Assembly (NCBI GenBank): GCA_026992595.1
Contig: JALWZW010000050.1
Coordinates: 1-41,227, forward strand
Reading direction: 5' to 3'
Length of the DNA: 41,227 nucleotides
Origin: Candidatus Micrarchaeota archaeon
GTDB lineage: Archaea > Micrarchaeota > Micrarchaeia > Anstonellales > Bilamarchaeaceae
Positions within the stretch are counted from its first letter, which is position 1. Each line of letters starts with the position of its first letter. The notes beneath the pieces are model-generated. The model searched no databases. It was not told the DNA's origin and worked only from the letters and a program-made list of their open reading frames with translations. Below, in pieces: positions 12-39,428 of this stretch. Position numbers and translations under genes: made by a program.

Positions 12-635
12 TTGGAGAAAGAGGAGGAATATTGGAAAAAGGAGTTAAAAACAGGTAAGGCAAGGTATCTGCTCTATAAACCACTAAAAATCCTTAATAT
101 GTTTCTTATCTCTGTCATGATGGCCGGCGCTTTAGTCAGTTACTACTATCTCGCTCTTTTATTGGGCCGCAATATTTTTGATTTAAACTCATGGGCATGG
201 ACTGTAGGAGGAGCGGCTGTTTTTTATGCTTCTCTAAATGTTGCAAGCCGCATATCTAGGTGGTTATGGAAGGTAGAGTACTGTGAGGCGAATAGAGATA
301 AATATTGGTGTATAGATTTTCCTTCTATGAGGTTGCGCTCTTTGAGAGCGATCCGGCGCATTGCGGAAGGCGAGGTTACAAAGGAGAATTTAGAGGCCCT
401 CGAGATCTACAATCATACCTTGGATTTTAAATTGGAAGACGGCACCTCTCTTTTTGAGCGCGCCTATCAGAACAACAATGTAGAGGCGATGAGGATTTTG
501 CTTATCCTTTCCTTTTGGCCTCCTTATGAAAAGGTTATCTCCTATTTCTTATCACGCCTAGAAGAAAAGGCGCGCACAGAGGGAGGGGGAAAGGGGGAGT
601 GCGCAGAGGCTAAGAACGCAAACAATCCCTCTTAA
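12..635 (+). CDS. Hypothetical membrane protein: two TM helices plus an ankyrin-like C-terminal module (paralog of 11294-12646)
   Basis: ORF track. Two hydrophobic helices (FLISVMMAGALVSYYYLALLL, WTVGGAAVFYASL). The segment LEDGTSLFERAYQNNNVEAMRILLILSFW...SYFLSRLEEKARTE aligns by eye with LEDGTPLFVRAYERRNRRAMELLLLLSW...NYLLHALEEEARRE of the 450-aa ORF. Start is uncertain: TTG at 12 lies at the window edge, and an internal ATG sits near 99. Confidence 0.45.
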   Translation: MEKEEEYWKKELKTGKARYLLYKPLKILNMFLISVMMAGALVSYYYLALLLGRNIFDLNSWAWTVGGAAVFYASLNVASRISRWLWKVEYCEANRDKYWCIDFPSMRLRSLRAIRRIAEGEVTKENLEALEIYNHTLDFKLEDGTSLFERAYQNNNVEAMRILLILSFWPPYEKVISYFLSRLEEKARTEGGGKGECAEAKNANNPS

Positions 636-2106: not shown

Positions 2107-2167
2107 GAGGATTTATAAGAGGAAGAGGATTATAAGTTTTTGGGAAGGGCGCGCCTGTTAGTCAAAG

Positions 2168-2180
2168 TTAAAAATAAAAA
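2168..2180 (+). promoter_or_regulatory. TATA-like box upstream of the six-paralog operon
   Basis: TTAAAAATAAAAA lies about 25-30 nt upstream of the ATG at 2203, which would give a leaderless or short-leader transcript. Supported by sequence and spacing only. Confidence 0.25.
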
Positions 2181-2202
2181 CCTTAAAGTGCTTTATCTTC
2201 TG

Positions 2203-3375
2203 ATGGCTTTGGACCTAATGCCCGCCGTGCCTATGCTTGCGGTAGCAGTTTCTATTTTTCTCGCCCTCGCTTATTTACTCTCCCGCGCTCTTCAGAACGA
2301 GCAGTTAGCGCTTTGGGTGAAGATTGAGTTGGCTGAATTGATTGTTTCTGCAGTGCTCATCGCCATTATAACGGGCATGTTTGCGAGCGCACCCCAAATT
2401 TTAAGAGATTATACCGGGGAGGCGGGTGATTTTAGAGAAATAACGCTTGCTGTTGTAGATGGTTGGATTGATGGTTTTTATGCTTCTTATAAAGGGCTGG
2501 TAAAACTCTCTAACTTCATAGGTCAAATGTCCTCGCTAACCTTCGGAGTTTCCATACCTGTTTATGTTTTTACTTTTGGTTTTGGCGGCTCCACTTATGG
2601 GGGAGTGAGCATACTTTTAGGGATGCTTAGCCGCCTTTCCACTTCTTTAACCACCCTTGTTTTTTTGTATGAAGGGTTGAGAGCGCTACTTGAATTTATC
2701 TTTATCACCGTTCCCCCTATTCTCCTCCCCCTCTCTTTCATGGCGCGCCTCATCCCCTTTTTAAGAAAAACAGGGAGCGCTCTTATTGCCTTATCTATAA
2801 CTGCCTATTTGCTTTTACCCTTTGCAATAATCTTCACCAACGCCCTTAATGAAGCGTTGGGAGAGGAAAAGCCAGAGGCAGTGGAAAATGTCTCAAGCCC
2901 CTTCTACTCCCTTTCTGCGGCAAGCGTGATGAAGGGGGTGGTGTGTAGTGAAGTAGGGCGCGTCCCTATAGATACAATAAGAGGACTAAGAAACATGGGG
3001 GAGCAATTATTTGGTTTTATTTCTTGCATTTGGGCGATCCCTTTTGGCTGGTTTCCCGGCTGCTATGCTACTGTGACTCTTAGTATTTATCCCTTCCTCA
3101 ACATAGCTTTTGACCTATTCATGTCTGCCCTCTTTTTGGCGTTTGTTATGGAATATGTTTTTGAATCTGCGGCTGCGGCGGCTGGGGGAGGCGGCTCAGC
3201 ACCCACAGTGATCTTTGAAAGCGCGCAATATTATGCAACAGAAACCACAAAACTGATTGTTTTAGGGAATGTAAATCTTGTTCTAATAGCGCTTATTGTG
3301 CTGGTAGGCGCTCGCTCTATCTCTACAGCGCTTGGCGGTGATTGGTATATGGCAGGAATTCAGAGGTTGATATGA
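2203..3375 (+). CDS. Polytopic membrane protein, paralog 1 of 6 (function unknown)
   Basis: The ORF track gives 2140-3375 from a TTG. The in-frame ATG at 2203 (MALDLMPAVPML...) matches the N-termini of paralogs 5 and 6. Family motifs present: WVKIELAELIVSAVLIA, MARLIPFLRKTGSALIALSITAYLLLPF, C-terminal tail ALGGDWYMAGIQRLI. Multiple TM helices. Confidence 0.8.
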   Translation: MALDLMPAVPMLAVAVSIFLALAYLLSRALQNEQLALWVKIELAELIVSAVLIAIITGMFASAPQILRDYTGEAGDFREITLAVVDGWIDGFYASYKGLVKLSNFIGQMSSLTFGVSIPVYVFTFGFGGSTYGGVSILLGMLSRLSTSLTTLVFLYEGLRALLEFIFITVPPILLPLSFMARLIPFLRKTGSALIALSITAYLLLPFAIIFTNALNEALGEEKPEAVENVSSPFYSLSAASVMKGVVCSEVGRVPIDTIRGLRNMGEQLFGFISCIWAIPFGWFPGCYATVTLSIYPFLNIAFDLFMSALFLAFVMEYVFESAAAAAGGGGSAPTVIFESAQYYATETTKLIVLGNVNLVLIALIVLVGARSISTALGGDWYMAGIQRLI

Positions 3376-4379
3376 TGAAAAAGGCACTTCTCTTTTTGTT
3401 TTTCATTTCTCTTTCTTATGCGCTTCAATGCGTTGATTTGGGGGAACTTTCCGATTTTATGATTGCAGAGGCCGGCGTCTATTTAGCCCCTCTTATAATG
3501 CTCCTTATAGTGGTAATAGCGCTTTTATATGCAGGAGGCACTGTGCTCAACAGGCCTGACCTTATAATAATTGCAAAAGATGAACTTTACCACTTATTTA
3601 TTTCTGTAATAATTCTTATCTCGTTTGGAGGTGTTGCGGTTTTCTCTTGTTTAGCGCTTGATTTCTTCTATCAAAACCTATTTTCCACCCTTTTTGAAAG
3701 CAGAGATTCTTATTGCTATACCCTCTCCTCTTCAGTGTACGATACCGCTTTTTGCTATGCTGATATGTTGGAGCGTGATGCACTCAAACTTGCAGAAGAA
3801 TATACGCGCTTATATATATCAAAGTTAAGAGAATCTGCTTTTGCCGTGACTATGGGGCTGCTCATCACCGATACTTACACTGTGGCTTCCTCTGCCTACA
3901 ATCGCGTTATTGCAAACCAATATAACTTCCTCCTTAACACTTTTATTATCCCTATTCTTACCAGCATCCGCGTTCAAAAGCTTGCATTGGGCTTTATTCA
4001 AAATGAACTTATAAAATATGCGCTTCCCGCAGCCATCATTGCGCGCTTTATCCCATTCTTGCGCCAATCAGGCAATATGGGGTTGGTGATGGTTCTTTCC
4101 ATTTATGTAATAGTTCCCTTCTTCTATGTGCTTGGTTTATCTACTTTTGAATATATTCTCACCCCTCAAGAGTGCGCAGAAAATGCGTTGCTTCAGCAAG
4201 CGCTTTATGACCCGCCTTTTGATAACTCTGAGATAGCAAACAGTTGCAACCCTGATCAACTAAGTTTTTTAGCAATAGCACGGCTGCTACCGCAAGCGGT
4301 ATTTTTGCCAAACCTAACGCTTACGGTAAGTATTTTATTCATATTAGGCGTTAATAGGGCTTTGAGAGGGATAGGATGA
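3372..4379 (+). CDS. Polytopic membrane protein, paralog 2 of 6 (function unknown)
   Basis: The ATG at 3372 overlaps the stop of paralog 1 (ATGA), with GAGGT upstream. Signal-peptide-like MMKKALLFLFFISLSYA. Motifs IAKDELYHLFISVIILI and IARFIPFLRQSGNMGLVMVLSIYVIVPF. It ends at ...NRALRGIG and lacks the extended tail. Confidence 0.8.
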   Translation: MMKKALLFLFFISLSYALQCVDLGELSDFMIAEAGVYLAPLIMLLIVVIALLYAGGTVLNRPDLIIIAKDELYHLFISVIILISFGGVAVFSCLALDFFYQNLFSTLFESRDSYCYTLSSSVYDTAFCYADMLERDALKLAEEYTRLYISKLRESAFAVTMGLLITDTYTVASSAYNRVIANQYNFLLNTFIIPILTSIRVQKLALGFIQNELIKYALPAAIIARFIPFLRQSGNMGLVMVLSIYVIVPFFYVLGLSTFEYILTPQECAENALLQQALYDPPFDNSEIANSCNPDQLSFLAIARLLPQAVFLPNLTLTVSILFILGVNRALRGIG

Positions 4380-6457
4380 AGCGCTTGTTGCTTTTATTTT
4401 TATTGTTTGTTTCTTTTGCCTCCTCTCCTGCTCAAACCCAGTTTGAGGAGGCCACTTCATCCTTTGCTTTAGAATTGGTGCGCGATTGGAAAGCAATTTC
4501 CATCGCCGTCCTTCTCCTCTCCACTGTTATTGTAGCGCTTGCTTACGGTTTCGGTATCGCTTTTGAACTTCCTCAAGTAAAAGCGTGGGCTAATTTGGAG
4601 TTAAGGCAGATTATCGCAAACGCGCTCATCATCGCTTTTCTCATTGCTTCCATTGCTTTTATTGACAATTTGGCGCGCGCGCTTGTGGAGGAAAGCGGAA
4701 TTGCAGTTCCTGAATGCGCTGCAGGCCGCGCTGACTGCTTGCAAGGGGTTGCAAAAACATACATTCAGCAATACTACCAAATGGCTGAAAACGAGTTAAA
4801 GGCGGTTTATTTAGAAAATGTGGCTGATTCGCGTCTTGCTTCTTTAAGAACCTCTGCTTCCTGCTACAGCATCATTGTTCCTGTCCCCTGTTTCCAATTT
4901 GCTATCAACGCTCTCCCATTTGCTATACTTTATTTAGATGTTGATTATAACATGGTGGTGTTTGAGCATTTGCTCAACATTGCCGCTTCCCTTAAGTCAC
5001 AAGAATTTTTTGTAACCGTTATTGGCTACAATTGGGGCCCCATTCTCTTGGCGCTGGGAGTGGTGGCGCGCTCCTTTTATTTAACAAGAAGGTTGGGCGG
5101 CCTTTTAATCGCTGCCTCCATTGGCATCCTCTTTTTCCTCCCCTTTATGTATCTCTTCAATTGGCTTACTTTGGACACCGTTCTAACCTCTTCTTTAGAA
5201 GGGCGCGGCGCTTCTGCAACCTGCCCTTCAGAGTGTATGAAACGCTACCCTGTTGCTTTCAGCGGCTCTCAATCATTTACAGATGAGGACCTGGCAGGGT
5301 TGGGCTTTTCAGAAAATGAGATTAACGCGCTTTCTAATGGAAGCGCCTCTTCGCTCAGCAAAGAGGGCCGCACCTATTATTCCTGCTTTGTGGATGAAAA
5401 CGGCGCGAAATCTGAGGAACAGTGCCCGCGCACCTGCAGAGAGATTCCTTACCCTCAAACCACAGTGTGTGCTGATGAAGATGTGCAAAAGGCATGTGGG
5501 GAGTTGATAAAGGAGTGTAAGGTTGAAAGAGTGGTGGAGGGAGAGGATAGGGATGCGCTTCTGAGCGGCGCTGCGGCTGCTCAATGCCCTGATGCCTGCA
5601 AAATCACCCCCCCGCTTAAGGATGATTGCGGCGCCACTGATTGCAGAACGGTACCTTTTGCGTGCCGCCTTGCCTATAAGCAATATGTGCTTGATGAGGA
5701 TGGGGTGGGCTTCATACCTACTTATTCTTTCCCTGTTAGGTTAGATGATGAAGGAGAGAATATTTGCAGGGATGCGGAAAAGTGCTTTGAGGGGTTGGAA
5801 GATGGCACTTATTTAAGCGCTTATTCTTCCTGCGGCTATATTGTGCCTAAAGAGCAGTCCTGCAGCGAACTTTGTGCTGACTGCCCCCCTCCCTGCCGCA
5901 TTGTTTATATTCCTGCCAGCGAGTCAGACCCTTGGTATATAATGTGCAGGGATTATAGCGTAGAGTGCGTTTCCTGCCCTGTTACTTGCAAAGCAGATGT
6001 CACTTATGATAATTTGAGAAAACTTAAATCTTGCGGCTCTTGCCCTGATTATAAGCGTGTGGTGGGGTTTGGACTTCCTGAAGATTATTTTGAGGGCGCT
6101 TGCTCTTTAGACCAGTGCCCTGCTGATTTAGAGCACAGGGTGCTTATCCCCTCTTCCTCATGCGAAGGGTGTATGTTTAGCGATGAACGCGCCTACTTCA
6201 ACCCGCCCATCACTCCCAATTGCGCTGAGGTGTGCTCTCCTGAGCAGACCACTTATGCCAAATCGCCTGGCCGCTACTCTCAATTGGGCGGAGAGGGGAT
6301 GGCAGGGCCTGAGGAGGTTAAAAACATTTCAAAACTTATGCTTCCCGGCTATCTCTTACCGCTTTTCAATTTAATCGCTACCCTTGTATTTGTAAAAGGG
6401 CTTTCAGAGTTGTTAGGCGGGGATATTGAGATTCCGGGTATTAGGAGGTTGGTGTGA
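4376..6457 (+). CDS. Polytopic membrane protein, paralog 3 of 6, with a large Cys-rich ectodomain insertion
   Basis: ATGA overlap with paralog 2. Signal-like MKRLLLLFLLFVSFASS. Motifs WANLELRQIIANALIIAF and VARSFYLTRRLGGLLIAASIGILFFLPF. A roughly 340-aa insert holds about 32 Cys by hand count, including CPSEC, CPRTC, CPDAC, CPPPC and CPVTC. Final TM plus tail LLGGDIEIPGIRRLV. Confidence 0.85.
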   Translation: MKRLLLLFLLFVSFASSPAQTQFEEATSSFALELVRDWKAISIAVLLLSTVIVALAYGFGIAFELPQVKAWANLELRQIIANALIIAFLIASIAFIDNLARALVEESGIAVPECAAGRADCLQGVAKTYIQQYYQMAENELKAVYLENVADSRLASLRTSASCYSIIVPVPCFQFAINALPFAILYLDVDYNMVVFEHLLNIAASLKSQEFFVTVIGYNWGPILLALGVVARSFYLTRRLGGLLIAASIGILFFLPFMYLFNWLTLDTVLTSSLEGRGASATCPSECMKRYPVAFSGSQSFTDEDLAGLGFSENEINALSNGSASSLSKEGRTYYSCFVDENGAKSEEQCPRTCREIPYPQTTVCADEDVQKACGELIKECKVERVVEGEDRDALLSGAAAAQCPDACKITPPLKDDCGATDCRTVPFACRLAYKQYVLDEDGVGFIPTYSFPVRLDDEGENICRDAEKCFEGLEDGTYLSAYSSCGYIVPKEQSCSELCADCPPPCRIVYIPASESDPWYIMCRDYSVECVSCPVTCKADVTYDNLRKLKSCGSCPDYKRVVGFGLPEDYFEGACSLDQCPADLEHRVLIPSSSCEGCMFSDERAYFNPPITPNCAEVCSPEQTTYAKSPGRYSQLGGEGMAGPEEVKNISKLMLPGYLLPLFNLIATLVFVKGLSELLGGDIEIPGIRRLV

Positions 6458-7443
6458 TGAGAGCGCTTATCTTTTTATTTGTGATTTCCGCTGTTTTTGC
6501 GGCTTGGCAGTCCTTTGCGCTATTAGCGCTCACCACCTCTGTGGTTTTGTTAGCGCTTATATATGGCATTGCCATCGCCTTTTCTGTAAATGAATTGAAG
6601 TTGGTGGCTAAAGAGGAACTTTATCAAATTATCGCCACTGCCCTTATCATCGCTTTGTTGATGGGAAGCGACGGGCTGCTTAATGCAATCTCCACCAACG
6701 CAGACCTCTTGGTGGAAGGCACTACCACTGTGCAGGGAAGCGCTTTAGCCATTCTTTCTAACTACGCAGAACGCTTAGAAAATGCGTTAGAGCGAATAAA
6801 AGAGTTGGACCTTGAGGCAGGTATTGCGGGCTCTACCACTCGCAGTTGCTATGGTGCTTCCTCCACCGCTTACCTTACTTTTAGAGATTGCGGCGGCTTT
6901 TCTATGTACAACCCTGCTTTTTCTGTTGCTGGGGGTGTGGTAGGTGCTGCTTTAGGAGTCATATACTCCATCAAAAATTTAATTCGCTTAGGGGTTGGCT
7001 TTGGCTTCACTATCCTCTTGCCGGTGGGCATCATTTTAAGGACTTTTAAGTTTACGCGAGGTGCCGGAGGGTTGGTTATTGCTTTTGGTATAGCCCTTTA
7101 TTTAATTATTCCTTTGGCAGTTTTATTCGGCGACATGTTGGTTAAAGAGTTTGAGGAAAACTCTTCCACTTATTCTACAGAACCTTCTTCTGTAAGTGTG
7201 GAATTTGATTGCGGGGGCTTTGACCTGAAAGATCTCTATAGAACCCCTACCATGGCTGCTAACAGGGCTGCTTCACAGGTGGATGGGTTAAGACAACTTT
7301 TAAGAGCTTATACTAAAGATGTTTTAATGAGGGGGATTTTAGTGCCTGCTATCGCCCTGCTCTCTTTTGCCAGTTCTCTAAGTGCTTTGGCGGCTTTAGG
7401 AGGGGCAGAGATTAATGTCTCTGCATTGGCGAGGTTTATATGA
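6454..7443 (+). CDS. Polytopic membrane protein, paralog 4 of 6 (function unknown)
   Basis: GTG at 6454 or ATG at 6457 overlaps the paralog 3 stop, with AGGAGG at 6443-6448. Signal-like MMRALIFLFVISAVFA. Motifs VAKEELYQIIATALIIAL and ILRTFKFTRGAGGLVIAFGIALYLIIPL. Tail ALGGAEINVSALARFI. Confidence 0.8.
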   Translation: MMRALIFLFVISAVFAAWQSFALLALTTSVVLLALIYGIAIAFSVNELKLVAKEELYQIIATALIIALLMGSDGLLNAISTNADLLVEGTTTVQGSALAILSNYAERLENALERIKELDLEAGIAGSTTRSCYGASSTAYLTFRDCGGFSMYNPAFSVAGGVVGAALGVIYSIKNLIRLGVGFGFTILLPVGIILRTFKFTRGAGGLVIAFGIALYLIIPLAVLFGDMLVKEFEENSSTYSTEPSSVSVEFDCGGFDLKDLYRTPTMAANRAASQVDGLRQLLRAYTKDVLMRGILVPAIALLSFASSLSALAALGGAEINVSALARFI

Positions 7444-8504
7444 TGCTGTGCGAACAGTTTAATGATTTCTTGCTCACCTCTCTCCTGCCTTTAATCGCCA
7501 CCGCCTCTATGGCCACCGGCATTATAATTGCTTTAGTGCTGTTATTGGGAAGGGCGATAGGCAATTCTCGTTTAAGCGTTTGGGCTAAAGATGAGGTGGT
7601 GCAACTCTTCTTCTCCCTTGCCTTTATCTCCTTTGTCCCTCTTTTGGTTAATTTAAGTTGCACCCTAAACGCCAACGATTTCAGAAACATTTTGCTCGAA
7701 GAAACCTCTTCAGAGGTGGTAAATCTCTATGATGCGGCTGAACTTTATGTGCTTTCTGCAGCGCGCTATTCGCATGAGGCGTTGGCAGCGGTGAGGTATC
7801 ATTTAGAGGTGTATGCGGTGCTTTCTGCTTCAAGCGGCTTTGAGTGTGCTTTCTCCTTTTTAGGGTGCTTGTTTGGGTATACTGGAGATAGTTTCTCTCT
7901 TTTTGGAGGATACGGAGCCCTTCAATCCGCCCTCTCTCTTTTCTTTAATTTAACTGTTATCTCTCTCATGACTGCCCTTCTTCATTATTTCATCCTTTCT
8001 CTCACCTCTAAAGCATTCTTGTTCTTCTTACTTCCTTTAGGCCTCTTTTTCCGCTCTCTGCCTTACATGAGGATACTTGGCTCTGTTCTCTTTGCCCTCG
8101 CCCTTTCCTTTATTTTCATTTATCCCCTTCTCCTTTCCATATTTTGGATAGGTAGCGATTTTGTTCTCCTTGTGCCTTCAGAGATCGGCGAGGGCGATGC
8201 TTATTTAAGAGCAGAAGAGGATATGGTGGGCCGTGCAGGGGCTGCAGCCGCTTCTTCGGTGGCTGCGTTGGCCAGTTTGGTGCCAGGAGCAGGCACCGAG
8301 TTAGCACAGGCCGCAATAAAGGCGTTTTATTTTGATGATGTGGATGAGAGGCCTTATGCAGTGATGGATTTTGCGGTAAGGGCGCTTTTTGCCGCTGTTA
8401 TCCTACCCACCTTGGCTTTAATAGGCGCGCTTGCTTCCACCGTTTACATTGCAAAATTCTTTGGCCAGCAGGTAGATTTAAGTAGGTTAATGCAGTTGAT
8501 GTGA
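7440..8504 (+). CDS. Polytopic membrane protein, paralog 5 of 6 (function unknown)
   Basis: ATGA overlap with paralog 4. Motifs WAKDEVVQLFFSLAFISF and FFRSLPYMRILGSVLFALALSFIFIYPL. Divergent tail FFGQQVDLSRLMQLM. Confidence 0.8.
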   Translation: MMLCEQFNDFLLTSLLPLIATASMATGIIIALVLLLGRAIGNSRLSVWAKDEVVQLFFSLAFISFVPLLVNLSCTLNANDFRNILLEETSSEVVNLYDAAELYVLSAARYSHEALAAVRYHLEVYAVLSASSGFECAFSFLGCLFGYTGDSFSLFGGYGALQSALSLFFNLTVISLMTALLHYFILSLTSKAFLFFLLPLGLFFRSLPYMRILGSVLFALALSFIFIYPLLLSIFWIGSDFVLLVPSEIGEGDAYLRAEEDMVGRAGAAAASSVAALASLVPGAGTELAQAAIKAFYFDDVDERPYAVMDFAVRALFAAVILPTLALIGALASTVYIAKFFGQQVDLSRLMQLM

Positions 8505-8508
8505 TAGG

Positions 8509-9642
8509 ATGGCGCTTCCAGATATGTTGGCTTCTTGGGAGGTGGGTTATGTTCCTATTATTGCAGTGGTTTCTCTTACCGCCACTGCCATTTATGCAAC
8601 GCTGCTAGGGTTTGCCAAAGCTTTTAACATGCCTAATTTAGAGCGTTTTGCTAAATCTGAGTTAGCGCAGGTTATTGCTACGGTGTTGATGACTGCCTTT
8701 TTGCTCTTTTTTGTGGGCTCTGCGCTTGAAGTGGCTTCTTCTCTTATAGGTGGAAATATTTACTGCGCCGGCGAATTATATACCTTTGGCGGCTATGAGT
8801 TTGACCCTTCTGAAGGTATTGTTTATGAAAACCAACCTTTGAACAAAGCGTTTGAACTTATTAAGTGCAAATTGAGGACAAGGGGTAAAGAAGTGGGCGA
8901 ATTTATTGACTCTATGTTCCCTCAACTAACGCAAACCAGCCCTCTTCCTTCTCTATCGGGCAGGGCGGCAGAACTTTACATGATCTACTTTCTCTACTAC
9001 TTCAGCGCGAGCGTTTTAGGGATTCCTATCTATAATGGGCAGTTTGGTTTAGGTGGTGGATGGGCCGGAGCGGCAGGGGGCGAACTTTTAAGCGTTTATG
9101 GTTTGGTGGAACAGTCCCGCCTTCTCCTCATGTTTGCGGTAAATGTTTTGGTTGCGATTAACAGCCAATATGCTCTTGTGCTCTATATTCAAAAAACCTT
9201 CCTTGCCATTTTCCTGCCTTTGGGTATTCTTTTAAGGTCTTTCTATTTCACAAGAAGTATAGGTGCCCTGTTTATCTCTCTCGCTCTTTCTCTCTATTTT
9301 GTTTATCCTGTTGTTTATATTCTTTTGGACCCTGGATTTGCGCCCTCTTCAACAAGCGAAGAAGAACCCGCCCCTTCTTCTGTTTCCTCTTTAGGTTGTG
9401 TTAATACCATGAACAGTTTTGCTACTGTTATGTCCTCCTTTGCTTCTGTTCAGCAGCAAACTGCCGCGGTAGGAGAAAGTGAAGGGCAAGCGAGCATTAG
9501 CGATTATTCGCGCTTCTATTTAGAACTTTTGATACACCCTCTTGTTTCTCTCTCTATTTCGCTGTTGGTAGCGCGTTATGTGATGCATCTTTTAGGTGGC
9601 GATCCTTATGCGTTTGCCCGCTTTGCGGCAAAAGTAATATAA
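8509..9642 (+). CDS. Polytopic membrane protein, paralog 6 of 6 (function unknown)
   Basis: Starts 4 nt after the paralog 5 stop. Motifs FAKSELAQVIATVLMTAF and LLRSFYFTRSIGALFISLALSLYFVYPV. Tail LLGGDPYAFARFAAKVI. Confidence 0.8.
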   Translation: MALPDMLASWEVGYVPIIAVVSLTATAIYATLLGFAKAFNMPNLERFAKSELAQVIATVLMTAFLLFFVGSALEVASSLIGGNIYCAGELYTFGGYEFDPSEGIVYENQPLNKAFELIKCKLRTRGKEVGEFIDSMFPQLTQTSPLPSLSGRAAELYMIYFLYYFSASVLGIPIYNGQFGLGGGWAGAAGGELLSVYGLVEQSRLLLMFAVNVLVAINSQYALVLYIQKTFLAIFLPLGILLRSFYFTRSIGALFISLALSLYFVYPVVYILLDPGFAPSSTSEEEPAPSSVSSLGCVNTMNSFATVMSSFASVQQQTAAVGESEGQASISDYSRFYLELLIHPLVSLSISLLVARYVMHLLGGDPYAFARFAAKVI

Positions 9643-9665: not shown

Positions 9666-10367
9666 ATGATAACCTTTCACGCTACTGCGGATCTAAAAAA
9701 ACTGAGAGAACCTTTAATAATCGTTGGCTTGCCTGGCACCGGCTTGGTCGGAAGTGTGGCTGCTTCCCATCTTATTGACGCGCTTAAAATGAGGTTTTGC
9801 GGCTACATTTCTAGCCCTGAATTTGCCCCTCTTGCCGCTATCCATAATTATACTCCCATGCCTGCTGCGCGCATCCATTACTCTTCTAAGCATAATTTAG
9901 TAGTTATTCTTTCTGAAATGAGCATTCCTGTTTCCCTCTCTTCGGAGTTGGCTAACAAAATTTTTGATTTTGCGCAAGAACTTAACGCAAGCGGGATAAT
10001 TTCTTTAGGCGGTATCTCTATAGAAGGCGGTAAAAAGGTGTATGTGGTTTCAAGCGATAAAAGGATTATAAGAGATGTGCGGCCTTATGCTCAACCTATT
10101 AGAGAGGGTGCAACCACTGGCGTTACCGCCATTTTGCTCACTAAGGGCACTTTGGAGAAGTTTCCCATCACTACTCTATTGGCAGAATCTGCTGAGGAAT
10201 ATTTGGACCCCGGAGCTGCGGCGCGCGTTTTAAAAACCCTTTCCAAAATTATAGGTGTTCCTATTCCTACAGTGAAGTTAGAGAAAGAGGCAAAAGAGGT
10301 TGCAGAGCGCGCTGGCAAAGGGCGTGTTCGCAGAGGAGTTGGTGAAAGCGGGTCTATGTATGGATAG
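9666..10367 (+). CDS. PAC2-family protein (proteasome assembly chaperone-like, PbaA/PbaB type)
   Basis: 233 aa. N-terminal LIIVGLPGTGLVGSVAASHLID is typical of the PAC2 family. The C-terminus ends ...SMYG, a hydrophobic-Tyr-X (HbYX-like) tripeptide. Located 23 nt downstream of paralog 6. Confidence 0.65.
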   Translation: MITFHATADLKKLREPLIIVGLPGTGLVGSVAASHLIDALKMRFCGYISSPEFAPLAAIHNYTPMPAARIHYSSKHNLVVILSEMSIPVSLSSELANKIFDFAQELNASGIISLGGISIEGGKKVYVVSSDKRIIRDVRPYAQPIREGATTGVTAILLTKGTLEKFPITTLLAESAEEYLDPGAAARVLKTLSKIIGVPIPTVKLEKEAKEVAERAGKGRVRRGVGESGSMYG

Positions 10368-11328
10368 TTTTCTAAAAAGGGCTTTTGAACTTGCTAAAAG
10401 GGCTAACCCTTCTCCCAATCCGCAGGTAGGGGCAGTGGTGGTTAAGGACGGCGAGATTGTGGGGGAAGGTTGGCATAAAAAAGCAGGGGGGCCTCATGCT
10501 GAAGTGGTTGCGCTTGAGGAAGCGGGAAGGGATGCGCAAGGCGCAACTCTCTATGTCTCTTTAGAGCCCTGCGCCCATTTTGGCAAAACCCCTCCCTGCA
10601 CCTATTTTATAAAGCGCAGCGGTATTAAGCGGGTGGTTTTTGGGCTCTCTGATGACCCCATTAGCGGCGGGGCTGATGAGTTGCGGGAGAGCGGCATGGA
10701 AGTGGAAGGACCTTTTAAAACGCGCCCTCTGCCCCCTCAAATAACTGTCAAAATGGCGGCAAGTTTAGATGGGAAAAGTGCTACTTACACAGGTGACTCT
10801 AAATGGATCACTCCTTTGGAGGTTAGGCGCTTGGTGCATAAATTAAGGGCGGTTTTTGACGCGGTGGTGGTAGGTGCAAACACTGTTAAAAAAGATGACC
10901 CAGAACTTACCGCGCACGGCATGGGAAAGGATCCTGTGAAAGTTATTTTAGATAGCGATTTTTGCATTAACCCTCGCGCCAGAGTGTTTAAAAAGGGGCG
11001 GGTTGTGATTGCATCTCCTCGCCCCTCTCCCTCCTCTTATCCTGCTGAAGTTATTTCCTTTACCAGTTTAAAGCAGTTGGTCGCTCTTTTGAGAGAGCGG
11101 GTGGGGGAGCGCATTTTGATTGAGGGGGGTAACAGCGTTAACGCATCTTTTTTCCGCGAGGGTTTGGTGGACCGCTTCATTGTTTTTATAAGCCCTAAAC
11201 TTATCGGCGGCGATGGCTTGCCTTTAATCGGCCCGTTGGGAATAAAGAAAATCGCACAGTGCGAAGAGTTTGAAATAAAAAAGATTAGGTTTTTTAAACG
11301 TCATGTTGTGCTTGACTGTTATCGCTGA
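10360..11328 (+). CDS. ribD: Bifunctional riboflavin biosynthesis protein RibD (pyrimidine deaminase / uracil reductase)
   Basis: Deaminase zinc motifs HAEVVAL and PCAHFGKTPPC are followed by the reductase-domain signature ITVKMAASLDGK...VVVGANTV. The ORF track starts at 10300. The ATG at 10360 (MDSFLKRAFELA) fits the family N-terminus and overlaps the PAC2 stop by 8 nt. Confidence 0.85.
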   Translation: MDSFLKRAFELAKRANPSPNPQVGAVVVKDGEIVGEGWHKKAGGPHAEVVALEEAGRDAQGATLYVSLEPCAHFGKTPPCTYFIKRSGIKRVVFGLSDDPISGGADELRESGMEVEGPFKTRPLPPQITVKMAASLDGKSATYTGDSKWITPLEVRRLVHKLRAVFDAVVVGANTVKKDDPELTAHGMGKDPVKVILDSDFCINPRARVFKKGRVVIASPRPSPSSYPAEVISFTSLKQLVALLRERVGERILIEGGNSVNASFFREGLVDRFIVFISPKLIGGDGLPLIGPLGIKKIAQCEEFEIKKIRFFKRHVVLDCYR

Positions 11329-12646
11329 CATTCACTGCAGCTTTTTCTTCACTTTCTTCTTCACTTCCCTCCTCTTTTTGTTCAACAATTCTTTCTATCT
11401 CACGAAATCTTAGCACTGAACCTATATCATAATCTGCTGGCCTATTACCATAAACATCTAAGGGCCCTTCTCTATTATATCCCAAACTTTCCATTTTTTC
11501 GAGAAACTCGCTAAATTCGGGTGTGTATTCTCCCTGCATAAAGGCATAGTGCATTAATGTTCTCCCCTCTTTATCTACTGTTTGAGGGTTCCAGCTTTTG
11601 GCTATTTCTAACGCTTTTTCATAGTTGCCTAAAGCAAGGGCTTCTTCAAACTTTTTGACCAGTGCCTCACACATGGTATGGAATTTTTCTTCTCTTTTGT
11701 TATCTTCCTGTTGTAGTTTTTTCTTCTCTTCTTCCCTCTTTCTCCTTTCTTCTCTTCGTGCTTCTTCTTCCAAAGCGTGAAGTAAATAGTTATCTATTAT
11801 CGCAGATGTAGGTGTTAGATCTCCCTTCCAACTAAGCAATAAAAGCAATTCCATTGCTCTTCTATTCCTTCTTTCGTATGCTCTTACAAATAAGGGAGTG
11901 CCATCTTCAAGCATGTATCGCGCATGGTCTGTGATGTGTGTGATGTTTGTCTTTTTCCCATTAGCAAGCTTCTTGAGGGCTTTTAAAGAGTTTCTTTTTG
12001 ATGACGCCCCCTTCTCTATTTTAAGGGCCACTCGAGACGACCTTATCATAAACCCGCAAAGGGAAATAAAAACTCCTATTCCCACTGCACCGATAAGAGG
12101 TGCTCCCTGCATTAAGAACATGCCTGTCACTACCAGAGGAATTATTATTGTTCGTGTCAGTAGAGCCCACCTATTGCTTACGCCTCTATAGTGCCTATTG
12201 CTTACGTCTCTATAGTGTCTTTCTAGATCTCTACTTTCTATATCCAGGCTTCTAAACTCCTTCTTTCTATCTTGATATATTCTGAAAAAAACAAGGTAAA
12301 GCTCTTCATTGCTCAACTTGTGGAGATTTGCTATTGCATTCTTCATTGATTGTTCGCTTCCTTCTCTTAACCACTTTTCCATTTTATCTACTAAGCTCTC
12401 TTCTTGCTTTCTTCCTGTTTCTACTCTGTATCTAACTATAGCGGCTCTTTGCTCCATTTCTCCGTCTGTTTGAGGGTTTTTTGCTGCAAAGAGCTTCTTT
12501 ACTTCGTTTAGAGAAGGGGTTGCTCTGGATAGTTTTGGCTCTCTTGGGCGGTATTCTTCGTATCCACAGTAGTACTCGCGGTATGGATCAGAGTAGTCGT
12601 AGCGGTGATAATCTCTTTTTATCCCACGCATTTTTACTTTCCTCAT
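11294..12646 (-). CDS. Hypothetical membrane protein with ankyrin-like repeats and charged coiled-coil regions (paralog of 12-635)
   Basis: 450 aa. Central TM pair (IIIPLVVTGMFLMQGAPLIGAVGIGVFISLCGFMI). Ankyrin-like LEDGTPLFVRAYERRNRRAMELLLLL and DKEGRTLMHYAFMQGE. KE-rich stretch. In-frame 8-aa duplication HYRDVSNR/HYRGVSNR. Confidence 0.6.
   Translation of the reverse strand: MRKVKMRGIKRDYHRYDYSDPYREYYCGYEEYRPREPKLSRATPSLNEVKKLFAAKNPQTDGEMEQRAAIVRYRVETGRKQEESLVDKMEKWLREGSEQSMKNAIANLHKLSNEELYLVFFRIYQDRKKEFRSLDIESRDLERHYRDVSNRHYRGVSNRWALLTRTIIIPLVVTGMFLMQGAPLIGAVGIGVFISLCGFMIRSSRVALKIEKGASSKRNSLKALKKLANGKKTNITHITDHARYMLEDGTPLFVRAYERRNRRAMELLLLLSWKGDLTPTSAIIDNYLLHALEEEARREERRKREEEKKKLQQEDNKREEKFHTMCEALVKKFEEALALGNYEKALEIAKSWNPQTVDKEGRTLMHYAFMQGEYTPEFSEFLEKMESLGYNREGPLDVYGNRPADYDIGSVLRFREIERIVEQKEEGSEEESEEKAAVNVSDNSQAQHDV
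12170..12217. repeat. Perfect-phase 24-bp tandem duplication (2 copies, 1 mismatch) inside the CDS at 11294-12646
   Basis: CCTATTGCTTACGCCTCTATAGTG is followed directly by CCTATTGCTTACGTCTCTATAGTG. On the minus strand this encodes HYRDVSNR-HYRGVSNR. Confidence 0.9.
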
Positions 12647-12660
12647 GTTATTATATATGT

Positions 12661-14964
12661 TTATTTATGTTTAAAAAATCTTTTCTTTAAAGCTGATCGC
12701 ACATGCTTCAAAAGCATTCTTTTCTCTGCAGAGGCCACGATGCGCCTTGTTCTTTCCACTGCGTCGGGATTTACTGAAATGCTGGTTATTCCAAATTCCA
12801 CCAATTTTTCTGCGAACTCGGGATAAACAGAGGGCGCCTGACCGCAAAGCGAGACAGTAACGCCGTGCTTGTTGCAGCGCTCTATCACATGCCTTATTGC
12901 CCTTAAAACCGCTTCATTTCTTTCATCAAAATCGCGCGCCAACTCTCTATTATCTCTATCAATCCCTAAAATCAGTTGCGTCAGGTCGTTGGTGCCTATG
13001 GAAACGCCATCTATACCTTCTTCACAGAACTCATCTATTAAAAATACGGTGCTGGGCACCTCTACCATTATCCACAATTTAAAATCTCTTTTAAACAACC
13101 CTGCCTCTCTTACCATCCCCTTTATTTCTCTCAATTCCTCCACGGTGCGCACAAAAGGTATCATAAGCCATAGATTCTTCAACTTAAACTCTTCGCGCAC
13201 CTTTTTTATTGCCTCCAACTCCATTCTAAACACGTCCGGCTCTCTCGCATAGCGCGAGGCGCCTCTGTAGCCGATCATGGGGTTTTCTTCGTGCGGCTCG
13301 TACTTTTCCCCTCCTTTGAGGTTGCGGTATTCGTTGGTTTTAAAATCAGTTGCGCGATACACCACCGGGCGCGGATAGAAAGCCGCAGCAAATCTGCGCA
13401 GCCCTTCTGCCAACCTTTCTACATACTCTTTCTCCCTCCCTTCTTCTATCACTTTTTTAGGATGTTCGCCTATCTGCGCCAACATAAATTCTGCGCGCAA
13501 AAGCCCTACTCCATCTACAGGATATTTAGCTATTTTCTCTGCCTGCTCCACATCTGCCAAATTCACATATATTTTTGTTCCTGTAATGGGCGCGGACACT
13601 GTTTGCGCCACCACTTTCTTAACCTCCTTTTCCTCGCCTGTCACAAACCCTTCATATACCAACCCTCTCTCTCCATCTACTGTCACTTCCATGCCGTCTT
13701 TAAGCAGTTTGGTTGCTTCTCCTGTGCCCACCACGCAGGGCACCCCCAATTCTCGGGAAACAATGGCTGCATGGCTGGTCATCCCTCCTGTATCTGTTAT
13801 AATAGCCGCCGCTTTTTTCATGGCAGGCACAAAATCAGGGGTGGTCATTTCTGTAACCAGCACCTCTCCGCTTTGCATTTTGCTTATCTCTTTCGCGCTT
13901 TTTATTATTCTCACACGGCCCATTCCTAAGCCCGGGGAAGCGCCCAACCCTTGCAAAAGCACCTTCCCCTCTTTTTTAGCGCTCTTCTGCTTTATCTTTG
14001 CCTCTTTTTTAAGGGTGGTTATGGGGCGCGATTGCACTATGTACAAATTCCCTCCTTCAAACGCATATTCAATATCTTGAGGAAACCTATAATGGTCCTC
14101 AATTTTTTTGCACACCTTTGCCAATTCCTTTATCTCGCTGTCTGAAAGTTTTTGAAGCCCGCGCGCCTCTTCCTTAATCTCCACATGCTGGTTTTTGCCG
14201 TTTACCCGCACAATCATCCAGGGCTGTTTGCTTATTTTTTTATCCACTATCTCAAAAGTTCTCTTGTCTACTTTATAGGTGTCAGGTGTTATCTTGCCGC
14301 TTACCACCACCTCGCCCAGCCCATACGCCGCTTCTATGGACATGATGTTGGGGTCCTGAGAAAGCGGGTCTACCGTAAACACCACCCCCGCCTTCTCGCT
14401 TTGCACCATCTTTTGCACCACTGCGGCCAGAGCCACTTTCATATGGTCAAAACCGTTTTCCTCTCTATAAAAGATGGCGCGCGGCTCAAATAGGGAAGCC
14501 CAGCATTTTTTAACCGCTTCCACCACAGCGTCCGCGCCTTTAACATTAAGGAAAGTGGATTGCTGTCCTGCAAAGGAGGCGTTGGGAAGGTCCTCTGCAG
14601 TTGCTGAACTGCGCACCGCAACATATTCTTCCCTTCCCCCTATTTCATTCAACCGCTTATATGCTTCTCTTATCGCTTTTTCTACTTCCTTGGGTATGGG
14701 AGATTGAAGGATGAGCTCTTTTATTTTCTCAGACGCCTTTACCAACTGCTCATGATCATTAATATCTGTCTCTTTCAATATCTCTGCTATTTTCTCTTTT
14801 ATGTGGTTTTTTTCCAAATGCTTAAAATATGCGCCGCTCGTGGTGCAAAAGCCGTTAGGAATAGGAAAACCATTCTGAAACATCTCTCCCAAATTTGCCC
14901 CTTTCCCTCCAACCTCTGCCACATTTTCTTTACTCAACTCGCTGAACCACATTACATCTTTCAT
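12661..14964 (-). CDS. ppsA: Phosphoenolpyruvate synthase (pyruvate, water dikinase)
   Basis: 767 aa. N-terminal VGGKGANLGEM ATP-grasp signature, phosphohistidine swivel motif GGMTSHAAIVSRELGVPCVVG, and a C-terminal PEP-utilising TIM barrel (GVSIGTNDLTQL). Confidence 0.95.
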   Translation of the reverse strand: MKDVMWFSELSKENVAEVGGKGANLGEMFQNGFPIPNGFCTTSGAYFKHLEKNHIKEKIAEILKETDINDHEQLVKASEKIKELILQSPIPKEVEKAIREAYKRLNEIGGREEYVAVRSSATAEDLPNASFAGQQSTFLNVKGADAVVEAVKKCWASLFEPRAIFYREENGFDHMKVALAAVVQKMVQSEKAGVVFTVDPLSQDPNIMSIEAAYGLGEVVVSGKITPDTYKVDKRTFEIVDKKISKQPWMIVRVNGKNQHVEIKEEARGLQKLSDSEIKELAKVCKKIEDHYRFPQDIEYAFEGGNLYIVQSRPITTLKKEAKIKQKSAKKEGKVLLQGLGASPGLGMGRVRIIKSAKEISKMQSGEVLVTEMTTPDFVPAMKKAAAIITDTGGMTSHAAIVSRELGVPCVVGTGEATKLLKDGMEVTVDGERGLVYEGFVTGEEKEVKKVVAQTVSAPITGTKIYVNLADVEQAEKIAKYPVDGVGLLRAEFMLAQIGEHPKKVIEEGREKEYVERLAEGLRRFAAAFYPRPVVYRATDFKTNEYRNLKGGEKYEPHEENPMIGYRGASRYAREPDVFRMELEAIKKVREEFKLKNLWLMIPFVRTVEELREIKGMVREAGLFKRDFKLWIMVEVPSTVFLIDEFCEEGIDGVSIGTNDLTQLILGIDRDNRELARDFDERNEAVLRAIRHVIERCNKHGVTVSLCGQAPSVYPEFAEKLVEFGITSISVNPDAVERTRRIVASAEKRMLLKHVRSALKKRFFKHK

Positions 14965-23676: not shown

Positions 23677-24375
23677 ATGCTGAGCATTATTATCCCTACT
23701 CTCAACGAAGAAGAATGGATCGGCAAACTTCTCACGCAACTGAAGGAGCAGGTGAGAGAGGGGGATGAAATTATTGTGGTAGATTCTGAGAGCGAGGACC
23801 GCACCGTAGAGATCGCTGAGCGGTTTGGGGCGCGGGTGATAAGGTGTGGGAGGAATGGGAAAGGAGAGGCCTGCACCTTGGGCGCAAAACATGCTAAGAA
23901 CGATATTGTGGTGTTTTTGGATGCTGATTGTATAATTGCAGGGGATTATTTAGAGAGAATTAGAAGTCATTTTAAGAAGGGGGTGGTGGCGGTGGGCGGT
24001 TTAGACCTTTATTTAAGCGAGTCGCGCCCCCGCAAATGGCTTTACGACACTTATTCTAAAGGGGTGTTCTATTTAAGCAAAATCCACAACCGCCTTACCA
24101 AAGAGTGTTGCTTCCCTTCAAACAATGCGGCCTTTAAGCGCGAGGCATTCTTGGCATGCGGCGGCTACCGCTCTGTGGTATGTGAGGAAGCAGATTTAAT
24201 GAGGAGGTTTAAAAGCCACAATGTTATCTATGACCCGCGCTTAGTTGTTCTGCTCTCTGACAGGCGCTTTAAGCAGCACGGCTTTCTAAACACCCTTGCG
24301 TTATGGGCAAAAGGCCATCTCAAACTTATTTTAGAGGACGGCCTTAAGTCCCATGATTATAAAAAGGGGTATTAA
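23677..24375 (+). CDS. Glycosyltransferase family 2
   Basis: LSIIIPTLNEE, VVDSESEDRT and FLDADC (DxD) motifs. Confidence 0.85.
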   Translation: MLSIIIPTLNEEEWIGKLLTQLKEQVREGDEIIVVDSESEDRTVEIAERFGARVIRCGRNGKGEACTLGAKHAKNDIVVFLDADCIIAGDYLERIRSHFKKGVVAVGGLDLYLSESRPRKWLYDTYSKGVFYLSKIHNRLTKECCFPSNNAAFKREAFLACGGYRSVVCEEADLMRRFKSHNVIYDPRLVVLLSDRRFKQHGFLNTLALWAKGHLKLILEDGLKSHDYKKGY

Positions 24376-24385
24376 AAGAGTTAGT

Positions 24386-24394
24386 TTTATAAAT
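24386..24394 (+). promoter_or_regulatory. TATA-like box upstream of the large surface-protein gene
   Basis: TTTATAAAT lies about 26 nt upstream of the ATG at 24416. Confidence 0.25.
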
Positions 24395-24415
24395 CTTCTA
24401 TTTTTTAAACTTGTG

Positions 24416-37793: not shown

Positions 37794-38054
37794 ATGATCG
37801 TGATTGAAATTCTCTCTTCGGCTGAATGCGAAAATTGCTCTATCGCAAAGCGCGTTATTGAGGAGATGGTGAAGGGGATGGAGGATGTGGAGGTGAGAGA
37901 GATAAACATTATTAAAAATCCTGAATATGCGGCAAAATATCAGGTGATGGTCACTCCTGCCATTGTAATAAACGACAAACTTGAATTTAGCGGGGTTCCT
38001 GATGAAAAAAAGCTTTTAGAAAGGTTGGAAGAGATAAGGCGGGAAGATGGGTGA
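37794..38054 (+). CDS. Small thioredoxin-fold protein (glutaredoxin-like, CxxC = CENC)
   Basis: 86 aa. The SSAECENCSIAK active-site-like motif and VTPAIVIND (cis-Pro region) are typical of small archaeal thioredoxin-like proteins. Confidence 0.7.
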   Translation: MIVIEILSSAECENCSIAKRVIEEMVKGMEDVEVREINIIKNPEYAAKYQVMVTPAIVINDKLEFSGVPDEKKLLERLEEIRREDG

Positions 38055-39000: not shown

Positions 39001-39428
39001 GGCCTTTGCTTCTGTTGTTGTTTTTCCCTCTACTCTTTGCCCATGTTGTGGAAAAAGAAAACTTTACTTTTTCAACCCCGCAAACCACTTTAACTATTTC
39101 CCACCAGCCTCGCTTTCCTGTAGTGGGTCAGGAGGTTGTTTTTAGGGTTATTACTGATATAAAGGGAGAGGTTATTTTTGAGATTCACAGCGCTGATTTT
39201 TCGCAGAAGATTGTTCCTTCTTACAACAACTCTTCTTATGTTGCTTCCTATACTTTTAAAGAACCAGGCAACTACTCTCTTCATCTGGTTATCGAGGGTG
39301 TGGAAGTTAATCCCAACTACTCTTTTGAGGTGGATGCTTTAGATTTCTGGGATTTTATGCAGATTTTTATTATAGTGATTTTCGTTGGCTTTTTAGGGTG
39401 GAATATTTACAGCGACTGTAAAAAATAA
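38997..39428 (+). CDS. Secreted, C-terminally anchored small beta-sandwich-like protein (possible YcnI/CopC-like metal binder; speculative)
   Basis: ATGA overlap with ccdA. Signal peptide MRPLLLLLFFPLLFA is followed by His (HVVEK...), which would be the mature N-terminus. About 100 aa of beta-rich sequence, then C-terminal TM IFIIVIFVGFLGW. The function is inference only. Confidence 0.5.
   Translation: MRPLLLLLFFPLLFAHVVEKENFTFSTPQTTLTISHQPRFPVVGQEVVFRVITDIKGEVIFEIHSADFSQKIVPSYNNSSYVASYTFKEPGNYSLHLVIEGVEVNPNYSFEVDALDFWDFMQIFIIVIFVGFLGWNIYSDCKK

Follow-up and report, generated by a model that had tools for sequence, protein, structure and literature searches.

We analysed six consecutive plus-strand genes, here called P1 to P6, on contig JALWZW010000050.1 of a Candidatus Micrarchaeota archaeon (assembly GCA_026992595.1); the whole 41,227-nt stretch is referred to as the window. 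The six genes encode mutually paralogous membrane proteins, and their array is conserved in related genomes. Some relatives of the array stand in one operon with genes for VirB2-like pilins and a VirB4-like ATPase, and the N-terminal hairpin of the family resembles these pilins. The six proteins are probably the membrane core of a machine that serves transfer or contact between cells. Our best reading, which we hold with about even confidence, is that six ancient paralogs form a hetero-oligomeric VirB6/CedA-like platform of a machine derived from a type IV secretion system (T4SS). The organism is a small-genome DPANN archaeon of the Micrarchaeota, the kind of organism that an earlier note, made from the letters of this DNA, had considered.

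Six coupled paralogs and their family

The operon contains the following features (window coordinates).

2167-2183, plus strand: TATA-like A/T-rich box gttaaaaataaaaacc, ~28 nt upstream of ATG 2203, read by eye
2203-3375, plus strand: P1 (390 aa), the first of the paralogs, without a signal peptide in this genome; VKIELAELI (AKxEL type) at nt 2317-2343, R-x5-R-x2-G..P at nt 2746-2820, tail GGDWYMAGIQRLI
3372-4379, plus strand: P2, 335 aa, signal-peptide-like N-terminus, ATGA overlap with P1; AKDELYHLF at nt 3573-3599, R-x5-R at nt 4044-4118, short tail (..RALRGIG)
4376-6457, plus strand: P3, 693 aa, with an N-terminus like a signal peptide; motifs ANLELRQII (nt 4589-4615) and R-x5-R (nt 5069-5143), tail GGDIEIPGIRRLV
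6454-7443, plus strand: P4, 329 aa, begins with GTG in a GTGA overlap and has an N-terminus like a signal peptide; motifs AKEELYQII (nt 6607-6633) and RTFKFTRGAGG..P (nt 7039-7113); ecto-loop 1 holds a conserved pair of Cys residues
7440-8504, plus strand: P5, 354 aa, ATGA overlap with P4; AKDEVVQLF at nt 7584-7610, R-x5-R at nt 8052-8126
8509-9642, plus strand: P6, 377 aa, last gene of the array, after a 4-nt gap; AKSELAQVI at nt 8650-8676, R-x5-R at nt 9235-9309
3355-3375, 4360-4379, 6437-6457 and 7423-7443: tail-Arg codons with Shine-Dalgarno-like sites

The earlier note had described six translationally coupled, paralogous open reading frames (ORFs) with a set of common motifs, and this description held up in each respect. 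The junctions from P1 to P6 are, in order, ATGA, ATGA, GTGA and ATGA overlaps and then the 4-nt gap. GAGG or GGAGG lies 6-8 nt ahead of the next start at the P1/P2, P2/P3, P3/P4 and P4/P5 junctions; neither Shine-Dalgarno-like sequence is evident ahead of the P6 start. In P1 to P4 it is the AGG/AGA codon of the conserved tail Arg (Arg-Gly in P2) that provides this GAGG or GGAGG, and part of the conserved C-terminal tail may be under a dual constraint of coding and translational coupling. The P1 ORF can be extended to TTG 2140, a start that we rejected; the position of the TATA-like box argues for ATG 2203, and the public gene call of the identical protein P0019 (390 aa) agrees with it. The box may be an archaeal promoter from which an operon mRNA with a short leader, or none, is transcribed.

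The six products share 19-27% identity and are linked to one another by phmmer at E-values of 1e-5 to 1e-15. Five residues are invariant in the 6-way alignment (E42, R182, R188, G191 and P206 in P1 numbering). In a 93-sequence alignment of the family (P4 numbering), R202 and P220 never vary, and conservation is 90% or higher at E55, R196 and G205. The AKxEL-type and R-x5-R motifs are present in all six window proteins and the C-terminal GG[DE]...R[LF][IV] tail in all but P2, and the pattern R-x5-R-x2-G-x(10-14)-P was found in 290 of 298 collected family ORFs.

Hydropathy and AlphaFold2 (AF2) models agree on one predicted layout. An optional signal peptide, cleaved in P2 to P4, precedes a hairpin of two transmembrane (TM) helices (TM1-loop-TM2) and a helical ecto-domain. 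A short basic loop then links TM3 to TM4, and a second ecto-region, which is variable, leads to TM5 and a short tail. The AF2 model of P4 (pLDDT 74, pTM 0.67) consists of five long helices, each a TM segment plus extension, and that of P1 (pLDDT 65) is all-helical. The two predicted ecto-regions hold 51 of the 55 Cys residues, which agrees with the extracellular location that had been proposed for the Cys loops, and Lys plus Arg make up 18-27% of the TM3-TM4 loop but 0-10% of the ecto-regions. From hydropathy, the AF2 helices, the distribution of Cys and the positive-inside rule, the proteins are predicted to be N-out and C-in, with about five TM helices and a large TM2-TM3 loop. In this topology, the elements conserved across the paralogs would lie in the cytoplasm or at the membrane interface, whereas variable parts would be external.

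Individual members depart from the common layout in several ways. P3 carries a Cys-rich insertion of ~390 aa in ecto-loop 2, between TM4 and TM5, which holds 32 of the 51 ecto-region Cys residues; P3 relatives in the type-A arrays described below (~394 aa) lack it. Cys131, Cys145 and Cys252 are invariant in P4 orthologs. P1 has an additional, strongly hydrophobic helix in its second ecto-region (residues 295-319, window 3085-3160), which is present in P1 orthologs and not in the other paralogs; if this helix crosses the membrane, the topology of P1 would differ from that of its siblings. Some family members elsewhere (P0134, P0161 and P0163) are extended at the N-terminus by long extracellular regions that contain adhesion-type domains, either CARDB or right-handed beta-helix; such regions fit an N-terminus that lies outside and a role in adhesion or at the surface.

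The family had not been recognised when the array was first noted, and we likewise found nothing meaningful for the six proteins or the family profiles in Pfam, NCBIfam or PDB sequences. Foldseek searches of the PDB with the P4 and P1 models gave no match at E<=0.001; helices of BAR-domain proteins, TTYH and ABC transporters (TM-score 0.1-0.3) were dismissed as generic long-helix matches. The searchable literature contained no description that we could find of the family, or of a T4SS-like cluster in Micrarchaeota. An exhaustive HMMER search of representative proteins with a 20-sequence profile recovered 3,130 proteins at E<=0.001 and 2,536 at E<=1e-10, where a word-indexed search had recovered only 18 and 11 relatives. 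All family matches with a named organism belong to Micrarchaeota, including Ca. Anstonella. The P1 homologs are P0019-P0029.

To survey the array itself, GTDB species-representative genomes were scanned with one P4-specific peptide pattern. This gave 57 loci, most of them labelled Micrarchaeota, a few labelled only 'archaeon' and three 'Candidatus ainarchaeum'. The hidden Markov model (HMM) of the family found five or six consecutive members in nearly all sufficiently long loci of this set, and best hits were collinear in the order P1-P2-P3-P4-P5-P6 in all loci outside type A except L038. Overlap-type gene junctions are also kept in related arrays. In L001 the orthologs show identities and E-values of 33% and 1e-61 for P1, 37% and 6e-76 for P2, 39% and 4e-166 for P3, 36% and 7e-70 for P5, and 33% and 6e-66 for P6; the P1 relationship is one-to-one, and the L001 protein bears the signal peptide that the window P1 lacks. 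Judged by sequence, P1 to P6 are distinct, ancient and non-interchangeable orthogroups that were fixed before the sampled Micrarchaeota lineages diverged, which is the pattern expected for subunits of one hetero-oligomer. The array thus proved to be conserved in related genomes, mostly in P1-P6 order.

Several Micrarchaeota metagenome-assembled genomes (MAGs) contain two separate arrays on different contigs (L005/L024, L030/L033, L022/L035 and L038/L056), so that duplication has, in some lineages, affected the six-gene unit as a whole. A viral or mobile origin was dismissed: no relatives of the family were found on IMG/VR viral contigs, no integrase or relaxase was present among the flanking proteins scanned, which cover part of the flanking genes, and synteny with housekeeping genes is conserved.

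Pilin, ATPase and VirB6/CedA likeness

The operon link to secretion genes comes from Ca. Fermentimicrarchaeum limneticum (CP058998) and its relatives (L044, L046, L047, L049, L050, L053, L054 and L058), whose arrays we call type A; metagenome contigs L067, L068, L071, L075, L078, L080 and L082 have the same layout. Here a tight operon contains, in order, two or three small pilin genes, the six family genes, two genes for ~275-aa proteins with two TM helices (c10a and c10b), a gene for a 510-aa ATPase, and further genes. In L053 the relevant features are as follows.

10954: end of the sixth family gene
10955-11779: c10a
11780-12604: c10b
12615-14141: ATPase

A pilin-based scan of Joint Genome Institute (JGI) metagenomes found family genes directly after the pilins on all but one contig reaching past the pilins, and where contigs were longest, the family genes were followed in turn by the c10 proteins and the ATPase. 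The sole exception is L090, in which the pilins are followed by a 340-aa ORF that was not recognised as a family member.

The small type-A proteins have a signal peptide of the signal peptidase I (SPase-I) type, and a short basic loop joins their two hydrophobic helices. All 12 matched T4SS_pilin in Pfam (best E 9.7e-6) and two of them TrbC/VirB2, all below gathering thresholds; by these sequence features they are VirB2-like pilins. The type-A ATPase matched AAA_10 (3.6e-13), DUF87 (HerA, 6e-13) and the TraG P-loop family (6e-10) in Pfam. Its longest-spanning PDB match was the VirB4 C-terminal domain (4ag5, E 2e-10), with a HerA chain scoring better over a shorter stretch. The best NCBIfam models were CedD (5e-19), CedB (5e-18) and VirB4-like CD1110 (3e-15), all far under their equivalog cut-offs, so that the protein is a relative and not an ortholog. 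Among the type-A partner proteins scanned there was no relaxase or coupling protein; together with the housekeeping flanks, this gives the cluster the look of a Ced/Ted-type system that has been domesticated, not of a conjugative element.

The two c10 proteins are paralogs, each with an N-terminal hairpin of two TM helices and a cytoplasmic domain of ~190 aa (L050 10955-12608 and equivalents), and the ATPase that follows them has almost no N-terminal domain. The N-terminal domains of CedB and CedD jointly make up a VirB4 N-terminal domain (PMC11868833); by analogy, the c10 pair and the ATPase could be a split VirB3/VirB4 N-terminal-domain arrangement. A 'VirB4-like' label for long proteins upstream of type-B arrays was withdrawn as T4SS evidence, since Pfam identifies them as Cdc48-type AAA+ ATPases; they had clustered with the L058 ATPase only because of a common LAGLIDADG intein. 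Such inteins are found in the VirB4-like ATPase of L058 (12618-15761) and in the Cdc48-type ATPases of at least two other loci, L041 (45-3629) and L043 (149-3421), and proteins of L045 and L052 cluster with the latter two.

The window proteins and the type-A arrays robustly fall into the same family by sequence. An HMM of type-A members only matched the window proteins at E-values of 5e-19 to 5.5e-44, a converse HMM, restricted to sequences of the window and of type C, matched type-A members at ~1e-30 to 1e-50, and the R-x5-R-x2-G...P motif is present in 40 of 40 type-A members.

The pilins and the family also resemble each other in sequence. hhalign aligned the pilin and family profiles with a probability of 89% and a P-value of 2.4e-6 over 56 columns of the N-terminal hairpin (P4 residues 17-76), compared with P-values of 0.16-0.22 for reversed-sequence controls. 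When the pilin HMM was run over 887 ORFs, the first 14 matches after the pilins themselves were all family members. A pilin-like N-terminal relation of this kind has been reported for CedA/CedA1 and VirB6/VirB2 (PMC9905601). The same hairpin would also suit pilin-derived structural subunits that are not a channel, namely a stalk, minor pilin or tip (VirB5/VirB8-type) that nucleates or caps a VirB2-like filament, with another protein as the pore. The long helical ecto-extensions of the AF2 models, the variable ecto-loops and the adhesin-type N-terminal domains of some members are consistent with such a role. However, three more TM helices and conserved cytoplasmic loops are unexpected in filament subunits, the type-A operons contain no other conserved polytopic pore candidate besides the two-TM proteins, and arrays persist with no pilin gene nearby. 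We consider this explanation improbable.

The family genes are the only ones in the type-A pilin-to-ATPase operon that encode polytopic proteins, which speaks for a VirB6/CedA-like identity. When 93 members were compared with 18,950 NCBIfam models, CedA tied as the most-matched model (four members, best 2.1e-4, sub-threshold), with CedE just below it (two of the 93, best 9.7e-4, also sub-threshold); the models are NF041796 and NF053657. The predicted topology (N-out, five TM helices, large TM2-TM3 loop, C-in) matches that of VirB6, reportedly described by Jakubowski et al. in 2004, and that of the five-TM CedE. Five TM helices are documented for CedE (PMC11868833).

The same topology is found in TTYH proteins, and the six proteins might instead form a hetero-oligomeric ion or solute channel or transporter of TTYH-like architecture, unrelated to macromolecule transfer. 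TTYH1/2/3 were the top, non-significant Foldseek matches for P1 (E 0.034, TM-score ~0.2) and recurred for P4. The TM-scores of 0.15-0.27 give no evidence of a common fold, however, no transporter family matched in sequence, and the operon context of the relatives is one of pilins and a VirB4-like ATPase. This possibility is the most remote of those considered. TTYH1-3 are eukaryotic and show no sequence similarity to the family; they resemble it in architecture only, with five TM helices, N-out/C-in orientation and an extracellular helical bundle of TM extensions with disulfides, and the resemblance is almost certainly convergence.

Several observations weigh against a VirB6/CedA-like identity. 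The six window proteins matched neither the CedA nor the CedE model of NCBIfam, and Pfam TrbL (PF04610) was matched neither by them at E<=1 nor by the 93 members at E<=10. hhalign of the family against an alignment of TrwI/VirB6 and 21 homologs, which is shallow (Neff 2.3), gave a probability of 3% over 31 columns. In Foldseek, TrwI/VirB6 (7o3v) ranked 21st for the P4 model (E 0.31, probability 0.57, TM-score 0.27/0.32) and was not within the top 50 for the P1 model (pLDDT 65). The similarities to CedA/CedE and to the pilins stay below threshold and lie in hydrophobic helices, whose composition can inflate scores. Type-A positions map only partly onto P1 to P6, with positions 2, 3 and 5 tending to P2, P3 and P5. 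There is no pilin or VirB4-like ATPase within the 41-kb window, nor within 10 kb on either side of the array in most Micrarchaeota loci, and tblastn of the window found neither of the two giant proteins that accompany arrays elsewhere (see below). Because the defining ATPase and pilin are not in the window, its operon was not filed as a T4SS.

In the earlier note, the likeness to VirB6 was put down to analogy, not homology. The type-A pilin/ATPase context, the pilin-like hairpin and the weak CedA/CedE matches suggest that it is probably more than that, although the direct VirB6 comparisons were negative or insignificant; homology of the family to VirB6/CedA is likely but unproven. Of the characterised families that might have matched confidently, none did so significantly in Pfam, NCBIfam, PDB or Foldseek. 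The array had also been put forward as an undescribed envelope complex. It is indeed undescribed, and is probably better cast as a set of strongly diverged VirB6/CedA-like components that belong to an apparatus of T4SS descent.

Giant partners and other neighbours

To characterise the neighbours of the array, all ORFs of the fetched loci were clustered. As had been noted from the sequence, the window operon encodes no ATPase, pilin, ABC component or glycosyltransferase, and the pilin HMM found no pilin in the window or in type-B and type-C loci. In type C, which comprises most lineages, a Cys-rich secreted protein of ~1,330 aa begins 1 nt after P6 in 39 loci. A second giant of ~1,260 aa flanks the array, just upstream, in at least 27 loci and is also present in L064, the closest relative of the window; its N-terminal ecto-domain is followed by a single TM helix and a long cytoplasmic region of low complexity. 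These two giants are the commonest array partners in Micrarchaeota, and neither has a Pfam or NCBIfam domain. Examples are as follows.

L001 13094-16912: giant of the ~1,330-aa type
L001 1888-5676, minus strand: giant of the ~1,260-aa type
L064 1871-5629: giant of the ~1,260-aa type

The giants raise the possibility that the array is a T4SS-independent envelope scaffold. It would anchor or export the giant proteins, which are surface and cytoskeleton-like, as an organelle of the envelope or of host attachment, and the pilin/ATPase link would be secondary. The close linkage of both giants is in keeping with this, as are the occurrence of the 32-Cys P3 insertion in exactly the giant-bearing lineages and the lack of a significant VirB6 match in fold or sequence. 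Yet the window, which has neither giant, retains the six genes and all cytoplasmic motifs. A scaffold would also leave the pilin-like hairpin and the CedA/CedE matches unexplained, and the type-A operon is one tight transcription unit. We regard a scaffold of this kind as unlikely, if the strongest of the alternatives.

The PAC2 gene and the ankyrin-like genes that bracket the region had been named in the earlier note as neighbours to look for in other genomes. None of the genes for LysRS, PAC2, RibD and the ankyrin-like TM pair is conserved beside arrays elsewhere, where the partners are the two giants. The other features of the window are as follows.

12-635, plus strand, and 11294-12646, minus strand: ankyrin-like pair that brackets the region; mutual paralogs with TM segments, no Pfam family, and a common C-terminal module (..EDGT[SP]LF.RAY..N..AM.LLL.LS..)
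9666-10367: PAC2-family gene (proteasome-assembly-chaperone-like), 23 nt after P6
10300-11328: RibD
23677-27343: GT2 glycosyltransferase, then a 996-aa protein whose matches to beta-helix families of the pectate-lyase/NosD type are weak and below threshold
38047-39428: DsbD-type membrane thiol-disulfide transporter, then a filamin-like protein

The PAC2 gene likewise follows P6 in L063, a second assembly of the same organism, and is not found by arrays in other genomes. A 'proteasome activator' gene has been noted beside giant SPEARE proteins of nanohaloarchaea, which contain VirB4-like domains (PMC10266531); this parallel to the PAC2 adjacency may be coincidence. An extracytoplasmic disulfide system of the DsbD type would suit the many Cys-rich ecto-domains.

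Known systems and a proposed arrangement

What is new here is the protein family itself; Ced/Ted systems, tandem VirB6 paralogs and the T4SS of the candidate phyla radiation (CPR) have already been described. The closest archaeal parallels are CedA and CedE of the Ced DNA import system of Sulfolobales and TedA of the Ted system of Thermoproteales. Like the array, their genes are archaeal, chromosomal and not on a mobile element, and encode polytopic proteins whose N-terminal region resembles the cognate VirB2-like pilin (PMC9905601; for the array, our comparison of pilin and family). CedA and CedE are also a case of more than one paralog working together, and in the type-A relatives, though not in the window, the array stands beside a CedB/CedD-like ATPase and SPase-I-type pilins. 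In contrast to Ced, no family member reaches the NCBIfam cut-offs, the array comprises six fixed paralogs rather than one or two, its products have large Cys-containing ecto-domains, its operon in the window has no pilin or ATPase, and the host belongs to a DPANN episymbiont lineage and is not a crenarchaeon.

Among bacterial systems, VirB6/TrbL (PF04610; TrwI of plasmid R388, 7o3v) has the same predicted topology and the same place in a type-A pilin-to-ATPase cluster, but the motif set of the array (AKxEL; R-x5-R-x2-G...P) is unlike that of VirB6/TrbL. The Rickettsiales rvh T4SS (PMC2653234, PMC7648143) is also comparable, with tandem VirB6-type polytopic paralogs, some with huge extensions, in a host-dependent organism with a reduced genome. 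Its paralogs are recognisable as TrbL/VirB6 and belong to a canonical bacterial T4SS, whereas the array is archaeal, made of six fixed orthogroups and unrecognisable by standard models. Patescibacteria/CPR, which are ultrasmall episymbionts, carry a chromosomal, relaxase-free MPF_FATA-like T4SS with T4SS_pilin-type pilins, a VirB4-like ATPase and VirB6-like proteins, and this cluster has been proposed to serve the host-dependent lifestyle (PMC12102498). It differs from the array in being bacterial, in having a VirB6 that standard profiles detect and in lacking a six-paralog array. No counterpart in DPANN Micrarchaeota has been reported in the searchable literature.

Under the favoured reading of a VirB6/CedA-like platform, we infer the stoichiometry of the hetero-oligomer, its channel function, its docking roles and its substrate. 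The overlapping stop and start codons would yield the six proteins in fixed, probably equimolar amounts, and the six paralogs would assemble into one hetero-oligomeric membrane platform. This platform would be the functional, and probably the evolutionary, counterpart of the VirB6/CedA/CedE/TedA channel subunit. The AKxEL loop, the R-x5-R-x2-G loop and the GGD...R[LF][IV] tail, all predicted to be cytoplasmic, would dock a cytoplasmic motor, which in type A would be the hexameric VirB4/CedB-like ATPase, possibly bound through the two 2-TM proteins. The pilin-like hairpins may be the site at which VirB2-like subunits are extracted and polymerised, or may serve as a conduit, and the variable, Cys-containing and disulfide-bearing ecto-helices would build an extracellular stalk or contact surface. 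Since the type-A array is co-operonic with pilins and an ATPase, its ancestral job may have been that of a membrane channel and pilus-assembly base in a Ced/Ted-like apparatus, through which DNA or other macromolecules pass from cell to cell. The array would have become unlinked from the pilin and ATPase genes in the lineage of the window, with its partners encoded elsewhere or replaced by the giants seen in relatives, or it may serve as a host-contact platform.

A bolder and rather doubtful extension is that a widespread Micrarchaeota machine contains a pseudo-hexameric ring of six distinct, pilin-derived VirB6/CedA-like subunits, each present once, that match a hexameric VirB4-type motor, and that this machine has been re-wired in most lineages to the two giants. 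It would then be a DPANN-specific host-contact or transfer organelle analogous to the CPR T4SS.

Little is known of the molecular means by which DPANN archaea attach to hosts or exchange material with them. If the favoured reading is true, the array would be a widely conserved Micrarchaeota candidate for a host-interaction or DNA-exchange apparatus, and Ced/Ted-type systems would reach from Crenarchaeota to DPANN, in parallel to the chromosomal T4SS of CPR bacteria. Six fixed VirB6-like paralogs would stand in place of a homo-oligomer, and the family would bear on the evolution of the VirB6 channel and the VirB2 pilin from a common TM hairpin. It would also give an identity to ~3,100 representative sequences that are now without a Pfam or NCBIfam model.

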